33,650 bases of DNA from a virus (IMGVR_UViG_3300032155_000027:1-33650); one strand, 5' to 3'. Shown: positions 2,759-33,650, counted from the stretch's first letter. The notes: generated by a model from the sequence alone, not told the origin. Translations and numbers: made by a program.

Positions 2759-5458
2759 CTACTTCCGCTGGAACACCCAGCACTTGATGGACTTCTCCAG
2801 GAGGCAGGACCACACCGTGCGGTTCGCGTCCAGGAGCTTGTATTTCTTGCCGTGAGGCAGAAGCTTCTTGAGTTGCTGCATGTCGATGAGGGGCTGGCCT
2901 TTGGCTTGGGCGGCCTCGCGCACGTGGTTGAGGTTGATGGCCACGATGCCGGGCTCCTTTGAGTGGTTGAGGGTGTTGACCTCTTCCCTGTTCCGTTCGT
3001 TGGCCAGGTACTCGAACATCTCCCAAAACTGCTCCAGCAGGGGATGGTCAGCAGCGAGGCGCTGCTCGCGCACCTTGGCCCGGATGCGCAGGTACTCGGT
3101 GAGCCCTTCCGTGAGCTTTCCCTTCATGTCCGGGAAGACGACGGCCAGGGCCTCTCCGCATGCGGCGACCTGCGCGTGGTTCTTGATGATGCGCTCGTTC
3201 TTGAGGGACTCGTGCGCGGCGTACTGCGCCTCAAGGCGCTCGAAGGCCGCGGCGTAGGTGTCCAGGATCTTCCGTTCGTTGGCCAGGGCGACGGCCAGGA
3301 AGCCGCCCACGTCCGAGCTCGTCTGGCGCTCGAACCAGCGCGCCAATTCGCGCGTCCCTGCCTTGTGGTGGGCCTTGTCCGCGTGGCAGTGCACGATGCG
3401 CTGCAGGAGCGCTTCGGAGCCGTCCACCTCCGCGTTCTGTGAGATGAGGAGCGATCCCTGGAAGAGGTGCTCCTCGACGTCGTTGCTGCGCCTGGCCACG
3501 CCTAGGGTTCCCGTGCCGCGTCCGTTGAAAAACGGCTTGACCTCGTCGAAGCCGAACTGCCGTTGCTTCGCCCCCTGGTCCCCGTTGTCGCGGTCGGACT
3601 CGATGATGACCACGGGCAGGTTGGACACCTGGCTGAAAGCGCGGCGGCGTCCGGCTGGCGAGGACTTGAGAAGGTCAAAGCCCTCGTAGTCCTCGCGGCC
3701 GACGAGCTTCCAGAGGAACTCAAGGATGGTGGACTTGCCCGCGCCGGGCTCGCCGGTAAGCTCCAGGAAGGGGAAGGTCTTGTGCATGGCGCGGATCTGC
3801 TGGACGAAGAGGGAGCCGAACCAGAAGGCGAGCGTGGCCAGGCCCTGCCAGTGAAACGCCTTGGCGAAATTCACTATCCAGTCCTGGGAGAACTTGCCGT
3901 CGGTGTTGATGTAGACGCCGTTCAGGACGGTCTTGATGCCCACGCGGTTGATGTCGAAGTATCCGTTTTCGTTGACGGCTATTCGGCGGCCGTTGTGCCA
4001 CGCGTGCTGCTGGAAGATGTAGGCGGCCGTGTCCCGGTCGTAGCCCACGAATGGCAGGGCCTGTACCGTGGTCATGCGCTTGTTGAGCCAGCGGTCGCGC
4101 AGGATCTTGAGCTGTTGCATGTTTCCGTCGAATGTTCCGCCGCGGGAGCGGTTCAGGAGGGCCTTGTGGAACGCGTCCGGGCTGGTGATGGCCGTGCCTT
4201 CCAGCGCGATGATGTCGTCCGGCTGCTCGTTTGAGTAGGAGATGCCGAAGACGTAGCGCTGCTCGTCGACCAGGACGTCGCGCTCCATGTAGAGGAAGCG
4301 GGGGTGGATGTTCGAGATTTGGAGGATGTCGCAATGCTGCTTGAAGAGGTCGCGCCCGTCCTTGGACTTCAACGCGCCCTCGATAGGATTCTCTCCCGCG
4401 ACGGCCTCTCCGGACTCAGCCTTCGCCGCGCAGTAGGCCCCGGCCGCAACGGCGAGATCCTTCTCGAAGGCGGAGGGCAGGGTGATGGAGTAGATGGCGT
4501 TGCGGAAGTCGATGAGGAAGGACATGCGCCTGTTGCGCACGTAGTAGTGGTACGCCTTCTCCTCGACCGTCTCGGCCATGTAGAGGCGGCCGTGGTAGAG
4601 GCGCTCGGAGATGAAGGCGTCGTTGATCTTCTGCTCGCGCCAGAGATCGTCCCAGTCCTTGCCGTCCGGTAGGAGCAGCACCGTGGCCAGCTCGCCCATT
4701 TCCTTGAGGCGCTTGTGGTGGGCGCGGGCGTACTTCTTCCCGGCCGCGTCCGCGTCCAGGGCGATGACCCACCGAATGCCCTTGCCCTTGTGCAAGGCGA
4801 CGAAGGCCTCGGGGAAGTGGTTGCAGGAAAAGGCCGCCGCCGCCTTCTGCCCGGCGTGATTGAGGGCGATGGCGTGGAAGATGCCCTCCACGAGGAAGCA
4901 GCGGTCGCCCTGCTCCAGGGCCTGGTCAGGGGGCGACCACACGTCGCCGCGGAAGAGCGTCCCGTCGTCCTTGCGCGTCCCGCCGAAATGGGCTTTCTGC
5001 CCGTCCTTCTTGGTGCGCCCGATGAGGCGCTCCCAGTAGCGGGTGCGGGCTTCGTCCAGATAGAAGCGGATCGTGGGCACGTGCTCCGACGTGCCGGGCA
5101 CGGCCCAGGCCGCCTGCTCATACCAGCCGCGGATGCGCGAAAGATCGAAGCCGCGGTCGAGCCCGAGGTAGGCGTCTGCCGTGGCGTGGCGGTTCTCTTC
5201 GGTCGGTGGGTAGCGGTTGGCGAAGTCGGCGAAGATGTCGGGCAGGGCCTCGCGCACGGACTCCTCAAAGCCGCACTTGTTGAGCCTCTCGCAGCGTAGC
5301 ACCCAGGGCTGCTGCTTCCCGATGTAGAGGGTGCGCTTGCCGCAGCCGGGGCACTTCCCCTTGCGCAGGTAGTCCGTGGTGTCCTGAAATCCGAAGCCTG
5401 GATCGTCGCGCAGGGCGCGGATGATCTCTTCCGGGGAAATGTCCCTACGCGGTTGCAT
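2759..5458 (-). CDS. Zn-finger/TOPRIM primase-helicase (P4 alpha-like architecture), 899 aa
   Basis: N-terminal CPGC...CERLNKC, TOPRIM LVEGIFHA and ALDADAAG (DxD), Walker A GEPGAGKST, Walker B VVIIESD, and a C-terminal ~95-aa domain ending KCWVF. Start MQPRRDIS at 5458. Confidence 0.88.
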   Translation of the reverse strand: MQPRRDISPEEIIRALRDDPGFGFQDTTDYLRKGKCPGCGKRTLYIGKQQPWVLRCERLNKCGFEESVREALPDIFADFANRYPPTEENRHATADAYLGLDRGFDLSRIRGWYEQAAWAVPGTSEHVPTIRFYLDEARTRYWERLIGRTKKDGQKAHFGGTRKDDGTLFRGDVWSPPDQALEQGDRCFLVEGIFHAIALNHAGQKAAAAFSCNHFPEAFVALHKGKGIRWVIALDADAAGKKYARAHHKRLKEMGELATVLLLPDGKDWDDLWREQKINDAFISERLYHGRLYMAETVEEKAYHYYVRNRRMSFLIDFRNAIYSITLPSAFEKDLAVAAGAYCAAKAESGEAVAGENPIEGALKSKDGRDLFKQHCDILQISNIHPRFLYMERDVLVDEQRYVFGISYSNEQPDDIIALEGTAITSPDAFHKALLNRSRGGTFDGNMQQLKILRDRWLNKRMTTVQALPFVGYDRDTAAYIFQQHAWHNGRRIAVNENGYFDINRVGIKTVLNGVYINTDGKFSQDWIVNFAKAFHWQGLATLAFWFGSLFVQQIRAMHKTFPFLELTGEPGAGKSTILEFLWKLVGREDYEGFDLLKSSPAGRRRAFSQVSNLPVVIIESDRDNGDQGAKQRQFGFDEVKPFFNGRGTGTLGVARRSNDVEEHLFQGSLLISQNAEVDGSEALLQRIVHCHADKAHHKAGTRELARWFERQTSSDVGGFLAVALANERKILDTYAAAFERLEAQYAAHESLKNERIIKNHAQVAACGEALAVVFPDMKGKLTEGLTEYLRIRAKVREQRLAADHPLLEQFWEMFEYLANERNREEVNTLNHSKEPGIVAINLNHVREAAQAKGQPLIDMQQLKKLLPHGKKYKLLDANRTVWSCLLEKSIKCWVFQRK

Positions 5459-5636
5459 GCATCCCCCAGGGACACTTCCCGCAAAGGGAGCGGTTGACCC
5501 ACTGCATGGAGCCGCGCTGGCCGCGAACCTGCGGACATGGCCGGAGGTTCGGGTACGTGGCGGCCAAGCCCTTGAGCATGTCGATGGACGTTGCCCCGGC
5601 CTCTTCCGGTGTACGCGGGCAGCAGGGGCTAGGCAT
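5445..5636 (-). CDS. Small Cys-containing hypothetical protein (63 aa)
   Basis: Fills the gap between the CII-like gene and the primase, overlapping both. Confidence 0.45.
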   Translation of the reverse strand: MPSPCCPRTPEEAGATSIDMLKGLAATYPNLRPCPQVRGQRGSMQWVNRSLCGKCPWGMHATA

Positions 5637-6099
5637 TGTCGCGCTCCAGAAGGCGGAGGTCGGAAATCAGGGACATGCCGCGTTCGAGCACGTCGGATAT
5701 CTCGCGGATGAGTTTCCGGCATTCTTGCGGCTCGATCACGTTGTTCTTGATGGCCTCGCGGGCTTCTGTGGCCACGTCCCCGAGCTCGGCAAAGAGGTCG
5801 TTCACGCGACGCAGCAACTCGGAGCAATCAATGTCTTGGTGCTGCTCGTCGACGCCGTAGAATGTCGCCCTGGCGATGAGCCACTGCAGGACAACCTGAT
5901 TCCCAAGGACTGAGCAAAACCGGGGGATGTCGGCCAGGGAGGGAAAAAACTTATCCGTGCTGAACACGCGCCGCATGAATGATTCGGACCAGCCCATCTC
6001 CACGGCAATCTCTGGCAGCGGCTTGCCGCTTTGCTCGATGGCCAGCTTGAAGGCGTCGACGGCGTCCAGGTGGTGCAAGGGGGGGAAATCAGACGTCAT
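5629..6099 (-). CDS. Phage regulatory CII-family protein (186/HP1 CII-like)
   Basis: N-terminal HTH (LPEIAVEMGWSESFMRRVFS) and helical C-terminus ELGDVA...IEPQE. AGAGGA RBS before the ATG at 6099. Position follows the cro-like gene. Confidence 0.7.
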   Translation of the reverse strand: MTSDFPPLHHLDAVDAFKLAIEQSGKPLPEIAVEMGWSESFMRRVFSTDKFFPSLADIPRFCSVLGNQVVLQWLIARATFYGVDEQHQDIDCSELLRRVNDLFAELGDVATEAREAIKNNVIEPQECRKLIREISDVLERGMSLISDLRLLERDNA

Positions 6100-30455: not shown

Positions 30456-30698
30456 ATGCGCATCATCTGCGACAGGTGCAAGAGCAAGGCCCGGATCGAG
30501 ACGACGCGGGAGATAACCCCAGGCTTCCGCCGCCTCTACTGCGCCTGCCGCAACGTCGAATGCGGGCACACCTTCGTCATGGATCTGACCTTCTCCCACA
30601 CCCTCTCCCCTTCCGCCCTCGATCTCCCCACCGAAACGCGCGACGCCCTGCGGGATTGCTCCAGCAGGGCGCAGGCCAGGGCGCTCTTCGCAGACTAG
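30456..30698 (+). CDS. ogr: Ogr/Delta-family zinc-finger late activator
   Basis: CDRC...LYCACRNVECGHTFV...SHTLSPSA; GGAGG RBS before the ATG at 30456. Confidence 0.9.
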   Translation: MRIICDRCKSKARIETTREITPGFRRLYCACRNVECGHTFVMDLTFSHTLSPSALDLPTETRDALRDCSSRAQARALFAD

Positions 30699-31147
30699 GC
30701 CCCGGATGAGTTCTCGACCGTCACGCGGTCGATGTAGTAGCGCGCGGCCGAGGTGATGAAGCCGGAGCGGGTCATGCCCTCGGCCTTGGCGACGCGGTCG
30801 ATGCGCGCCAAGACGTGCGGGGCCAGGGAGATGTTGATGCGCACCGGAGGCTCCCCTGCTGGGGGCACGGGCACGGCCTGCAGGATGACGCCGGGGTGCA
30901 ACTCCTCCCCGTCCTCGGCCGCCGCGGCCTCGGCCTTGGCTCTGGCCTCCGCGAAATCGGACGGCGCGGGCACGGTGTCGCCGTCCGCGCGCATGACGTC
31001 CAGGAACCCATCAAGCGCCTCCTGGGCCATGGCGAAGGCCTCCGCGAAGGTGTTCCCCTGGGTTTGGCAGCCCGGCAGGTCCGGGAAGGTTACGGCGAAG
31101 GCCCCCGCCTTCTCCTCGGCCGGATGAAAGACCGCGATGTAGTGCAT
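30695..31147 (-). CDS. hicB: HicB antitoxin with C-terminal RHH
   Basis: FAVTFPDLPGCQTQG.T..EA..MAQEAL...VPAPS; VRINISL...RIDRVA...TRSGFI. Confidence 0.92.
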   Translation of the reverse strand: MHYIAVFHPAEEKAGAFAVTFPDLPGCQTQGNTFAEAFAMAQEALDGFLDVMRADGDTVPAPSDFAEARAKAEAAAAEDGEELHPGVILQAVPVPPAGEPPVRINISLAPHVLARIDRVAKAEGMTRSGFITSAARYYIDRVTVENSSGA

Positions 31148-31177
31148 GATTCCTCCCCGTCCGGGGAGTGAAGCCGC

Positions 31178-31366
31178 CTAGCGCAGCTTCACCCCAGACG
31201 CCTTCTCGATGCTCTTGACGTTCTTGATCCACAGGTCCTTGACCGGATGCTGCACAGTGACCTTTCCGGGCTTGCTCGGATGCTTGAAGTACCAATGGTC
31301 GCCGCGCGTTCCCACGTGGAACCATCCGTCCTCTTCGAGCTTCCTGATGACCGTCTTGCTGTCCAC
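31178..31366 (-). CDS. hicA: HicA mRNA interferase toxin
   Basis: LEEDGW...RGDHWYFKHPSKPGKVTVQHPVKDL; GTG start with GGAGG RBS. Confidence 0.92.
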   Translation of the reverse strand: MDSKTVIRKLEEDGWFHVGTRGDHWYFKHPSKPGKVTVQHPVKDLWIKNVKSIEKASGVKLR

Positions 31367-31389: not shown

Positions 31390-31441
31390 ACTATGGCGAT
31401 TTTTTGTGTAACAGTCAAGATAAATGTGTATTTTATACACA
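31390..31441 (-). promoter_or_regulatory. hicAB sigma70-type promoter and candidate HicB operator
   Basis: Minus strand TTGACT-17 bp-CATAGT (31418-31390). Palindrome TGTGTAT-TTT-ATACACA at 31425-31441 plus a half-site at 31405-31410. Confidence 0.68.
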
Positions 31442-31478
31442 AAAGAGGCCCCGGAGCCGAGAACGGCTCCGGGGCCTC
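31441..31478 (-). terminator. Intrinsic terminator ending the antirepressor operon
   Basis: 15-bp perfect stem (31445-31459/31464-31478) with a 4-nt loop, followed by TTTT on the minus strand. Confidence 0.85.
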
Positions 31479-31495
31479 CTCCCCCTCGGCAGCAG

Positions 31496-31696: not shown

Positions 31697-31943
31697 GGGG
31701 TTCCTCCTTCCGACGGAGCGCGGCGCGCATGCGCTCCACGTCGCCGGTCAGCCAGACGAGCTGCTGGTGCAGGTGATTGAGCGCTGTGGGCGAAAGGCGG
31801 CCCGTGCGCACGGCTTGCCGCAAGGTCACGGACGCGGCCCTGAATTCATCCGCCAGCGCCAGCAGGTCGTCGCTCATCCGCTCCATCCCGGCGACAACGG
31901 CGAAGACGTCCGTGTACTCTGGGTTCTGGTGTTCACTGCTCAT
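31686..31943 (-). CDS. Small helical hypothetical protein
   Basis: GAGGAGG RBS; ATGA overlap with the upstream gene. Confidence 0.62.
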   Translation of the reverse strand: MSSEHQNPEYTDVFAVVAGMERMSDDLLALADEFRAASVTLRQAVRTGRLSPTALNHLHQQLVWLTGDVERMRAALRRKEEPHGS

Positions 31944-32986
31944 GCCCGCGCCTCCTCGTGGGTTTCGGTTTCCGGACGCTCGCCGCGTGCGGAAGCCCCA
32001 CCCTGTACAGCATCCTCTCCATTTGCGCTAGGTGCTTCTAATATTTCAACATTTCTTGAAATGTTGATTTCTTGATTGCAGAAAAACACCCAACATTTCA
32101 GGGTCTTGCCCATATGCCCGCTGTTCATGGCCTTGTTGGCCTCCACCAGCTTGCGCGGGGTGCTGGCGCGCAGCAGCAGCCGCAGCTCCGGCGCGTCGAA
32201 GACGAAGAGCCCGCGCGCCTGCGAGGCGCGCATGAACTGCGGCAGGTTCACGGCCAGCAGCGCCGGGGTGCGCGAGTGATTGAGCCAGCCCGGTCCCTGG
32301 CCGTCCGGTCCCTTCTGGGAGTTCAGCAGGTCGAACTGCTGCCAGAAGGCCGTGACCAGGGCCGGTTCCTCCTCCTCGCCCTTGGCGAAGGCCTCGTACT
32401 GCCGCACGGCCTTGGGGCTCGCCTTGCGCCCCTTGCGGAGCAGGGCGTCGTTCTGCTCGATCACGAAGCGCGCGGCCGCGGCCACTGCCCCTCCGGGTTG
32501 CTCATTCCCCGTGAGGTGGAAACGCGAGAGCACCTGCCGGAGCAGCGCCTGGCGCGGCAGCTCCGCGAGCATGGCCCAGAGGGCCACCAGCTCGTGCAGC
32601 TCGTCCATGCTCGAATTGGACGGTCCGAGCCCGCCCAGGTTCTCCAGCACGTCCAGCACCCACTTGCGGAACTCCTTGGCCCGATCCGTCCTGGCCAGCA
32701 TGGCCAGGAGATGGCATCCGCGAGGGGAGAAGACGCGGACTTCCTGCGGCCCGCCTGCCGTCTCCACCGTGACCAGGGCGGTCATGTCCTCGCTGAACTC
32801 GTCGGCGTGTCGATCGAAGAGTCTTTTGATTGCCTTCTTCGCAAGGGGGGTGTCAGTTTGACCCCCCCCTTTGGTGTATCCGAGGGCAAGTGCGATCTGG
32901 CTAGCGCGGAGCCAAGGAACCCCTTCGCGGTCGAAGACCTGCATGGGCACGTCTTGAAAGAGGATGGCTTCCGGAAGATGGGTCAT
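31940..32986 (-). CDS. Bro-N/Ant-type antirepressor-like protein with ORF6C-like middle and a primase-C-terminal-like domain
   Basis: WLRASQIALALGY...DRHADEF...VRVFSPRGCHLLAMLART..AKEFRKWVLDVLE. The C-terminal domain aligns with the primase C-terminus. ATG at 32986 (ATGA overlap, GGAGG RBS). Confidence 0.8.
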   Translation of the reverse strand: MTHLPEAILFQDVPMQVFDREGVPWLRASQIALALGYTKGGGQTDTPLAKKAIKRLFDRHADEFSEDMTALVTVETAGGPQEVRVFSPRGCHLLAMLARTDRAKEFRKWVLDVLENLGGLGPSNSSMDELHELVALWAMLAELPRQALLRQVLSRFHLTGNEQPGGAVAAAARFVIEQNDALLRKGRKASPKAVRQYEAFAKGEEEEPALVTAFWQQFDLLNSQKGPDGQGPGWLNHSRTPALLAVNLPQFMRASQARGLFVFDAPELRLLLRASTPRKLVEANKAMNSGHMGKTLKCWVFFCNQEINISRNVEILEAPSANGEDAVQGGASARGERPETETHEEARA

Positions 32987-33438
32987 GACTGCACCTCCTG
33001 CTTCGCCAAATGATCTACAGAGGAATACCGTCTCCCGAATTTTCGGGGGACGGTCATCGAGCGGGATTCCCATGTGGAGTTTGACGAGCCGAAAGTTCGG
33101 CTCGTTGAATACACCGACGCCATACTCTTAGGGAACATCGGCCGAATTTTCCGCCGATGTCCTATCACGCGCCGCGCCTCCGGCTTCCGCGAGCGGAAGA
33201 CCAGGGAGTAGAGGCCAGACTCGGAGATGATGAGCATGTTGGGGTTGCCGCGATTTCCATCAGCAATGCTGATGGTATTCTTCTCGTCATCCTCCAATTC
33301 ACTGACGGCCTGCGATGGGTTTCCTAGGTCCAAGACGTTGCACACGTCCTTGGCCACGAACCAGGGATTACCCTCGTGGTCCGTGCGCACGCGCACCAAG
33401 GAGTCATCAAAAGCGTAAGGCACGAGGCTGGCGGTCAT
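32983..33438 (-). CDS. Bro-N family protein, domain cut short after RSRKPEARR and continued by a palindrome array
   Basis: PWFVAKDVCNVL...IISESGLYSLVFRSRKPEA is classical Bro-N. The usual final F..WV..EVLP helix is missing, but the frame stays open to a coupled stop. Confidence 0.75.
   Translation of the reverse strand: MTASLVPYAFDDSLVRVRTDHEGNPWFVAKDVCNVLDLGNPSQAVSELEDDEKNTISIADGNRGNPNMLIISESGLYSLVFRSRKPEARRVIGHRRKIRPMFPKSMASVYSTSRTFGSSNSTWESRSMTVPRKFGRRYSSVDHLAKQEVQS
33027..33160. repeat. Array of three palindromes with common core CCGAA-NN-TTC(G/C)G at 54/53-nt period
   Basis: ACCGTCTCCCGAA-TT-TTCGGGGGACGGT (33027-33054), ACGAGCCGAA-AG-TTCGGCTCGT (33084-33105) and ACATCGGCCGAA-TT-TTCCGCCGATGT (33135-33160). 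Confidence 0.9.
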
Positions 33439-33650
33439 TGCGCACCTCCAGGCGCGGCCTGGGGCGCGCCCTGGGGACCGGGGAAGGGGTGTAAGGATTG
33501 CTTACACCCTCGGCGGACGGCTGCCAGCGCGGGCAGCACGACGTGCCGCGCCGCCATCACGCGCTGCTTGCCGCGCAGCGCGCCGACCATGGCCAGGACC
33601 ACAGGGGACAGGGGATTGGCCTCGATCACGAGGCAGTAGGCGGGAACCAT
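33435..33650 (-). CDS. Hypothetical protein, possibly 5'-truncated by the window edge
   Basis: ATGA coupling to the Bro-N gene; the ORF reaches the last base of the window. Confidence 0.45.
   Translation of the reverse strand: MVPAYCLVIEANPLSPVVLAMVGALRGKQRVMAARHVVLPALAAVRRGCKQSLHPFPGPQGAPQAAPGGAQ

Follow-up and report, generated by a model that had tools for sequence, protein, structure and literature searches.

Three rha-gene fragments in a row beside an antirepressor-like gene of a P2-like prophage: candidate docking or decoy sites

The Roi protein of coliphage HK022 contains a Rha-like N-terminal part and an ANT/KilAC C-terminal domain. In work ascribed to Clerget and Boccard in 1996 (J Bacteriol 178:4077), the target of Roi is reportedly located in the roi gene itself, adjacent to an IHF site, and to our knowledge this is the only experimental precedent for sites of the kind considered here. 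The present sites form an array, a row of three palindromic fragments of rha genes found in the provirus IMGVR_UViG_3300032155_000027, whose complete IMG/VR record of 33,650 nucleotides (nt) is the window of this analysis. The array is located between two Bro-N genes of a P2-like prophage, whose host is of the Desulfovibrionaceae type; it overprints the end of the first of these genes (gene 1), and the second is designated gene 2. Comparison of sequences suggests, with a probability of about 0.4, that this row of fragments provides docking or decoy sites for the Rha-type proteins of other phages, placed before an antirepressor-like gene.

Roi resembles the present case in that the site of a phage regulator lies inside its own gene, as rha genes carry a palindrome inside theirs. 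On the other hand, Roi has one site, in its own gene and in a coliphage, whereas the array consists of three orphan sites of foreign rha genes, outside any rha gene. The roi gene also has an exact IHF consensus, which the array lacks. In the HK022 record, the open reading frame (ORF) between P and Q matches the ANT domain with 113.1 bits and Rha with 25.1 bits (cut-off 29.9).

The iterons of the lambda origin lie inside gene O and are dyad-symmetric cis sites for the protein that this gene encodes. Sites with dyad symmetry in the gene of the binder are thus common to lambda and to rha, where the binding is putative. The iterons, however, are identical repeats within one gene and serve replication, whereas the units of the array differ from each other and lie outside their parent gene. 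The ant genes of P22 and of P1/P7 are controlled by antisense or leader RNAs, sar and c4, respectively. As in the array, a structured element is placed directly upstream of an antirepressor-type gene, but the sar and c4 RNAs have promoters, terminators and complementary targets, none of which was found at the array.

Clusters of decoy transcription-factor binding-site repeats reportedly titrate a regulator rather than drive a promoter (PMC3322331, PMC8599769). Such decoy repeats are many copies of one site for a factor of the cell itself, whereas the array has three different sites, presumably for foreign factors. An earlier note on this DNA, made from the sequence alone, stated that no named system of this kind is known. 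The literature search agrees: with thin coverage of the older phage literature, it returned no published rha intragenic palindrome and no array of such sites. Newly seen here are the intragenic palindrome carried by most rha genes and a palindrome of their own, at a fixed position, in Bro-N genes.

Three abutting fragments of rha genes

The three palindromes of the array (Table 1) have their centres at 33040.5, 33094.5 and 33147.5, and the resulting periods of 54 and 53 nt correspond to 5.1 and 5.0 helical turns. The sole mismatch of palindrome 1 is G.U on the plus strand and that of palindrome 3 is C.C. Only CCGAA-NN-TTCGG is common to the three units. The core CCGAANNTTCGG, with at most one mismatch, occurs five times in the window, three of them in the array (expected 1.54; 1 of 100 shuffles reaches 5). 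A scan for hairpins of at least 10 pairs, at most one mismatch and a loop of up to 6 gave 17 in 33,650 nt, and three of these lie inside 134 nt at the array. The folding of the array surpasses that of all 200 shuffles on both strands (z of -3.47 on the minus and -3.98 on the plus strand). Core count, hairpin density and folding together indicate that the clustering of the palindromes is not a chance event.

Tandem duplication is ruled out as the origin of the units. Tandem Repeats Finder (TRF) detects no repeat at score 30, the columns invariant among the three units are 9 of 54, and the agreement between units outside the 12-nt core, 10-13 of 42 positions, is at the level of chance. The picture drawn in the earlier note, of three hairpins with a period of 54/53 that share the core only and are no simple tandem duplication, is therefore what the sequence contains. 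The plus-strand peptides are also as quoted there, with units 1 and 2 in the same frame and unit 3 in another, owing to the 53-nt step.

The note further proposed that each unit resembles a segment of the Rha family. A DNA search of 32987-33168 at E (expectation value) of 0.05 or below covered 401 genomes of the Desulfovibrionaceae family, 23 of which contain a match, and 20 returned loci were examined. Of these 20, the best four (E from 1.5e-6 to 4.1e-4) each fall within a Rha domain, where codons and orientation correspond to those of the units, and the other 16 have no Rha domain. Against PF09669, two of the ORFs reach 104.3 and 92.5 bits. A nhmmer profile was made from 50 natural rha genes, represented by their 54-nt segments, and run over both strands of the whole window. 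It picked out the three units alone, with an E of 5.2e-4 for unit 2, 0.0024 for unit 1 and 0.012 for unit 3, the next match having an E of 12. A covariance model, R1, built from 76 natural rha segments, scores unit 2 at 33.2 bits (E 7.8e-6), unit 1 at 32.0 bits (1.5e-5) and unit 3 at 14.5 bits (0.34); the next-best site, unrelated, has 10.6 bits. All three units are matched in the plus orientation. Relative to the local operon, the rha fragments are hence in antisense.

Units 1 and 2 are the clearest fragments. Unit 1 is identical to the rha gene of one locus (L259) at 28 of 32 positions and to that of another (L326) at 36 of 47; outside the core, it agrees with a third (L335) at 31 of 42. Its peptide PNFRGTVIERD compares with the natural PNFRPTVIERENPSGGKP. 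Unit 2 matches three loci, all within Phage_pRha domains, at 38 of 46 (L256), 31 of 35 (L257) and 33 of 39 positions (L258), with 32 of 42 in L256 outside the core, and its peptide EFDEPKVRLVEYTDA compares with the natural EFNERNFAPVEYTDAKGEKRP. The centres of units 1 and 3 read AAT|TTT. Unit 2 has an inverted centre, AAA|GTT, which corresponds to the natural AACTTT read in reverse complement and looks like the outcome of a flip of the palindrome. A metagenome contig of 173 nt matches unit 2 only (33074-33122) with five differences and unrelated flanks, and its plus strand looks coding. Unit 3 is the weakest case as a rha fragment. It covers positions 13-49 of the R1 model and is identical to one locus (L347) at 25 of 29 positions; outside the core, it shares 21 of 42 with L366, the natural mean being 12.4 with a standard deviation of 2.8.

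The similarity to rha spans about 33018-33066, 33062-33122 and 33128-33168, so that in every piece the palindrome is surrounded by about the same stretch of 17-20 codons. The joint of units 1 and 2 shares GGGA. Outside the core, these two units are 74-76% identical to two different rha subfamilies and at chance level to each other, and the signatures of two subfamilies exclude a local duplication. The G+C content by codon position in the plus frame of units 1-2 is coding-like (0.67/0.36/0.64). Very probably, then, the units are abutting fragments of about 55 nt from three different rha (Phage_pRha) genes, a statement that concerns their origin alone.

The Rha resemblance is thus upheld by the DNA searches, the nhmmer profile and the covariance model, and the subfamily matches and models likewise support the earlier idea of pieces from different rha lineages, each centred on a rha-internal palindrome. 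The protein-level and phage-record comparisons gave no such match. With E up to 10, the unit peptides do not match Phage_pRha, and five open stretches across the region, on both strands, match no Pfam family; PHROGs likewise returned nothing for the stretches open across the array. PF09669 has no match in the six-frame translation of the window, and a purpose-built 28-column protein profile reaches only E 0.23 to 3 on the units. The Pfam test is weak here, since the pieces span 16-18 residues of a 91-position model. In tblastn and blastn searches of the units against 50,697 phage records only chance-level matches appeared, none of them in rha or antirepressor genes, and the back-translated pattern of unit 2 returned no stretch from viral contigs.

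The Bro-N homology of gene 1 stops where the array begins (33168/33169), as the earlier note had observed. The Pfam profile PF02498 (Bro-N) matches residues 15-90 of the gene with 68.8 bits (cut-off 25.6) from position 2 to position 85 of 96. Aligned with eight relatives, gene 1 is homologous up to ...SRKPEARR (residue 90, plus-strand coordinate 33169), after which the relatives continue with FRKWVT.EVLP. No continuation of gene 1 beyond the array was found in any frame, and hence the array replaces the 3' part of the gene. To describe the array as inserted into a Bro-N gene, as the note did, is not accurate, because nothing of gene 1 resumes after it. Metagenome contigs that match the stretch are mostly distant Bro-N genes diverging at 33169-33176, and none of them spans the whole array. 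Four sequencing runs carry small shares of the stretch, and no RNA run is among those listed.

Table 1. Coordinates of the array, its palindromes and the two Bro-N genes in the 33,650-nt window
Feature	Coordinates	Strand	Remarks
Unit 1	33014..33067	+	rha subfamily F-R-L-x-N-F-x-E-T-V-x-x-R-E-N; palindrome 33027-33054
Unit 2	33068..33121	+	rha subfamily E-F-N-E-x-N-F-x-x-V-E-Y-T-D-A-K-G-E-K-R-P; palindrome 33084-33105
Unit 3	33122..33170	+	rha-like with weaker support, out of frame with units 1 and 2; palindrome 33135-33160
Palindrome 1	33027-33054		arms 33027-33039/33042-33054, 13 nt, 92%, 12/13 pairs, 2-nt centre
Palindrome 2	33084-33105		arms 33084-33093/33096-33105, 10 nt, 100%, 10/10 pairs, 2-nt centre
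Palindrome 3	33135-33160		arms 33135-33146/33149-33160, 12 nt, 92%, 11/12 pairs, 2-nt centre
Gene 1	33438-32983	-	151 codons; Bro-N domain and open tail
Gene 1, Bro-N-homologous part	33169..33438	-	codons 1-90; last domain helix FRKWVT.EVLP absent
Gene 1, intragenic Bro-N palindrome	33255..33277		residues about 55-62; Bro-N palindrome profile hits 33243-33289, E 1.3e-7
Gene 1, tail	32983..33168	-	61 open codons and stop, antisense through the rha fragments
Gene 2	31940..32986	-	348 codons; Bro-N and a C-terminal domain resembling the end of the phage's own primase
Gene 2, palindrome of the Bro-N part	32843..32871		12 pairs; not picked up by the Bro-N palindrome profile

Palindromes inside intact rha and Bro-N genes

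PF09669 is present in 98 of the 401 genomes, and 124 distinct Rha domains were sampled from the family genomes and IMG/VR. In 50 of the 124 a palindrome of at least 8 pairs is placed exactly at an Asn|Phe codon boundary, against a background of 0.28% of 10,380 other in-gene centres. A second rha subfamily has its palindrome about 20 nt upstream, with the centre AAAATT. When the centre is left free, 71 of 99 distinct palindromes (sequences) score 7 or more.

The arms vary from gene to gene yet stay complementary. On the 76 rha segments, 81.4% of the pairing cells are paired, versus 59.7% in shuffles, and the covariation is 0.547 versus 0.167 in shuffled segments (reached in 0 of 500) and 0.06-0.15 with slid partners. 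Changes on both sides are found in 12 of the 14 pairs. The complementarity includes synonymous positions and forces the codon pairs E/L, P/R and T/S, and the constraint is therefore one on the nucleic acid, not on the protein. Intact rha genes keep the palindrome by compensatory nucleotide changes, at the cost of amino-acid changes. The mismatches on the rha sense strand are 12 GT versus 29 AC, and those of the G.U type are therefore not favoured. The 124 domains show no clear enrichment of the IHF consensus beside the palindrome, and the relatives of the Rha alignment include none with a solved structure.

The Bro-N genes contain a palindrome of their own at a fixed position. At the spot occupied in gene 1 (residues 55-61), palindromes of at least 8 pairs occur in 97 of the 147 distinct relatives, 76 of which reach 10 pairs or more, against a background of 0.14% of 30,369 other in-gene positions. 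The arms differ between genes (loci L002-L081 and L148-L227) and the position does not. The palindrome in the Bro-N part of gene 2 has no profile match, and any homology to that of gene 1 would be putative. A further palindrome of 10 pairs, GGGTGTAAGGATTGCTTACACCC, is located at 33487-33509, inside the preceding ORF and 60 nt upstream of the start of gene 1; it resembles some of the intragenic Bro-N palindromes (e.g., that of L009), although, with a profile E of 0.59, it is weakly supported as an orphan site.

Segments of the rha type also occur elsewhere. Among 151 family genomes searched with R1 (E of 0.01 or below), 23 contain 36 matches, which include orphans at two kinds of locus: a scrambled rha by a Bro-N fragment (L432), and an orphan found in two identical copies (L428), 1.2 kb from a rha gene. 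At L432 (G026:C3), beside the Bro-N fragment, a new palindrome segment continues the frame of the C-terminal half of a rha domain (...KYIEAL|ECSVDFRKPNFGLSSY...). At another locus (L294), a rha gene breaks off after ...SKDGF, where a second fragment, GESNFGLSSY, is attached. Bro-N and rha genes often adjoin (L003, L040, L215, L432).

Rows of several fragments were met at loci fetched for other purposes. The low-GC phage contig L100 and its kin L084 and L127 contain a non-coding row of different rha-type palindromes. The row of L100 reads TERNFAPS, TELKFEPS and twice AGATGAGCCGAAATTTCGGCTCATCT, its centres being 37, 54, 74 and 54 nt apart, and it is placed directly upstream of a Rha-like gene. 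Several rha fragments lie in an intergenic region of L112, and in L215 a foreign rha fragment lies upstream of a rha gene that bears its own palindrome. A scan of viral contigs for a two-core pattern gave 62 stretches, mostly of one unrelated coding family, together with a few low-GC phages of relevance (L084, L100, L127, L129). In metagenome contigs, the search for a pattern of three cores yielded 20 stretches, which are without exception plain tandem repeats of near-identical units, and no homologue of the array.

Docking sites, recombination scars and structured RNA

The docking-site reading takes the palindrome as a DNA site that would be bound by a symmetric protein, most simply the product of the gene that carries it, with the arms of the palindrome setting the specificity. 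A DNA site is suggested by the presence of the same feature, at its own fixed spot, in Bro-N, a second and unrelated DNA-binding family. The sense-strand mismatches of the G.U type, which are not favoured, point the same way, as do the orphan copies upstream of gene starts (L100, L215, L112), the spacing near five turns within the array, the position of the array in the accessory end of the prophage, beside HicAB and antirepressor-like genes, and the site reported for Roi. In the array, three sites with three specificities, about five helical turns apart, would allow the regulators of co-resident or incoming phages to bind. Such binding could alter the expression of gene 2, or the regulators could be soaked up once the prophage replicates. 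The flipped centre of unit 2 and the GGGA joint would fit a hairpin-prone, microhomology-mediated copying of the fragments.

Several observations weigh against this reading. Stems that are contiguous up to the centre are equally typical of hairpins and operators. Units 1 and 2, with 74-90% identity to living rha genes, may be too young to have decayed, and intact stems are thus no proof of selection here. The asymmetry of GT and AC mismatches is confounded by codon constraints (GAG opposite CCC). Orphan fragments are uncommon in the family genomes searched: by hand comparison of coordinates, 33 of the 36 R1 matches lie inside rha genes and, of the three outside, none is an array. Three prophages with gene 2 homologues of 54-59% identity (L144-L146) have other DNA upstream, with no R1 match and no array. 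A single chromosomal copy would make a poor decoy. The IHF consensus WATCAANNNNTTR, which may not be that of the host, is absent from 32986-33200 with up to one mismatch. Lastly, the roi gene of HK022 stays below the Pfam cut-off for Rha and has no palindrome of at least 8 pairs.

The main rival, possible but on the unlikely side, is that the units are non-functional scars. The rha palindrome would then be a hot spot for hairpin-driven template switching or illegitimate recombination, and the units would be stubs left by rearrangements between the Bro-N and rha genes of co-resident phages. Rearranged rha genes with breaks beside the palindrome segment (L294, L432) and the lone orphan of L428 are in line with such scars, and so are the centre of unit 2, inverted in comparison with natural genes, and the GGGA microhomology at its joint with unit 1. 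The youth of the units, up to 90% identical to a living gene, the relatives without the array and the frequent vicinity of Bro-N and rha genes fit as well. On the other hand, random decay is not expected to produce the same segment, in the same orientation, with nearly the same borders and in a 54/53-nt phase, from three lineages. Neither do scars predict the like rows upstream of genes in unrelated phages.

A structured RNA comes next and is rather improbable. The stem-loops would act in the minus-strand mRNA of the Bro-N operon, or in a plus-strand antisense RNA, and control the translation, processing or stability of the gene 2 message. Both strands indeed fold far better than shuffles, unit 1 is only 27 nt from the ribosome site of gene 2, and the single mismatch of unit 1 is a G.U on the plus strand. 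However, Rfam 15 gives seven matches at E up to 10, all far below threshold (the best with 14.8 versus 35.8 bits), and nothing resembling a promoter or a terminator is present beside the array. On the rha sense strand, A.C mismatches outnumber those of the G.U type, as the counts above indicate, and the palindromes are found in either orientation to the local transcription, as a comparison of the window with L100 illustrates.

It is very improbable that the tail of gene 1 truly extends the Bro-N protein at its C-terminus, as a repeat of 18 residues (RKIRP / RTFGS / RKFGR). The frame is open for 61 codons and ends in the ATGA overlap with gene 2, but 61 open codons would arise by chance about once in ten cases, as estimated from base composition, and the 53-nt step breaks the frame of the repeat. 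The G+C content of the tail by codon position (0.44/0.54/0.62) is unlike that of coding DNA, and no homologue was found. A search of 5.8 billion protein clusters yielded 686 scored candidates, 676 of them at E 0.001, and the aligned ones cover the Bro-N part only; the relatives of gene 1 in viral and genome collections likewise match this part only. With tblastn against phage records the tail gives nothing better than E 2, and it has no Pfam or PHROG match. From these comparisons, the tail is probably not a real part of the protein. Mobile palindromes of the host, of the repetitive extragenic palindromic (REP) or miniature inverted-repeat transposable element (MITE) type, terminators or an array like clustered regularly interspaced short palindromic repeats (CRISPR) would account for clustered GC-rich hairpins between genes, but they are a negligible prospect, for the arms differ between units with no further copies in the 33.6-kb record, the terminator scan calls none of the three and no T tract follows any stem, no constant repeats separate spacers (only the 12-nt core is constant and the flanks of each core pair together; no search aimed at cas genes was made), and the units match rha coding sequence beyond the stems.

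The docking-site reading of the array can be extended to a broader one, which the same sequence patterns leave doubtful. Regulators of the Rha and Bro-N kinds may encode an operator of their own among the codons for the DNA-binding domain, and mobile elements may collect the operators of rivals into phased arrays. Such an operator array would be a heritable "address" library that allows a prophage to sense competing regulators, or to soak them up, and that is coupled to the prophage's own antirepressor-like gene. If the sites are bound, this would explain a strong and apparently undescribed nucleotide symmetry within the DNA-binding-domain codons of two common families of phage regulators. It would also offer a handle on the targets of Rha and Bro-N, which are largely unknown, as each gene would name its own site, and prophages and satellites would be able to read or blunt each other's regulators by DNA alone. 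If the array is only a scar, the rha palindrome would still mark a recombination hot spot that shapes the mosaic of rha genes.

Prophage setting and neighbouring genes

By its PHROG matches, the prophage is of the P2-like myovirus type, with an integrase at 1-1071 and a primase at 2759-5827. The matched structural genes comprise baseplate, tail fibre, tape measure, sheath, head and terminase. The host is of the Desulfovibrionaceae type, a relative of sulfate reducers. The right end of the prophage is accessory and contains an Ogr-like regulator, a HicAB-like pair and a minus-strand cluster of small genes. The pair, a HicB-like and a HicA-like member of a toxin-antitoxin system, is located at 30698-31366, between the Ogr-like regulator and the Bro-N cluster. 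The minus-strand cluster ends with the ORF 33650-33435, followed by gene 1 and then by gene 2.

The G+C content by codon position in the Bro-N part of gene 1 is 0.58/0.41/0.79. Genes 1 and 2 overlap by their stop and start codons, respectively (ATGA), and the ribosome site GGAGGTG is placed at 32993-32999, 27 nt from the array. The distance between the start of gene 2 and the centre of unit 1 is 54 nt. Gene 2 matches Bro-N of Pfam with 40.1 bits and, among PHROGs, anti-repressor families and positions 780-887 of phrog_1139. Its C-terminal half corresponds to the last 100 or so positions of phrog_1139, a DNA-primase PHROG, and is also matched by phrog_20645 and phrog_18886. The same PHROGs match the C-terminus of the 1022-residue primase of the prophage, and gene 2 is thus composed of a Bro-N head and a copy of the primase tail.

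Upstream of their gene 2 homologues, the prophages L144-L146 have in common some 250 nt of conserved non-coding DNA, which is absent from the window. This stretch contains a promoter-like box, CTTGACAC...TAGGGCAGA, and a hairpin followed by a T run (CCCACGCCCGTCAG...CGTGGG-TTTTTGC). In the window, the low-GC 3' end of gene 2 carries an AT-rich palindrome, TCAACATTTCTTGAAATGTTGA, at 32046-32067, and a hairpin of 16 pairs is found at 31443-31480, near a promoter-like site at 31390-31418. The last 1.65 kb of the window holds 7 of the 17 strong hairpins.

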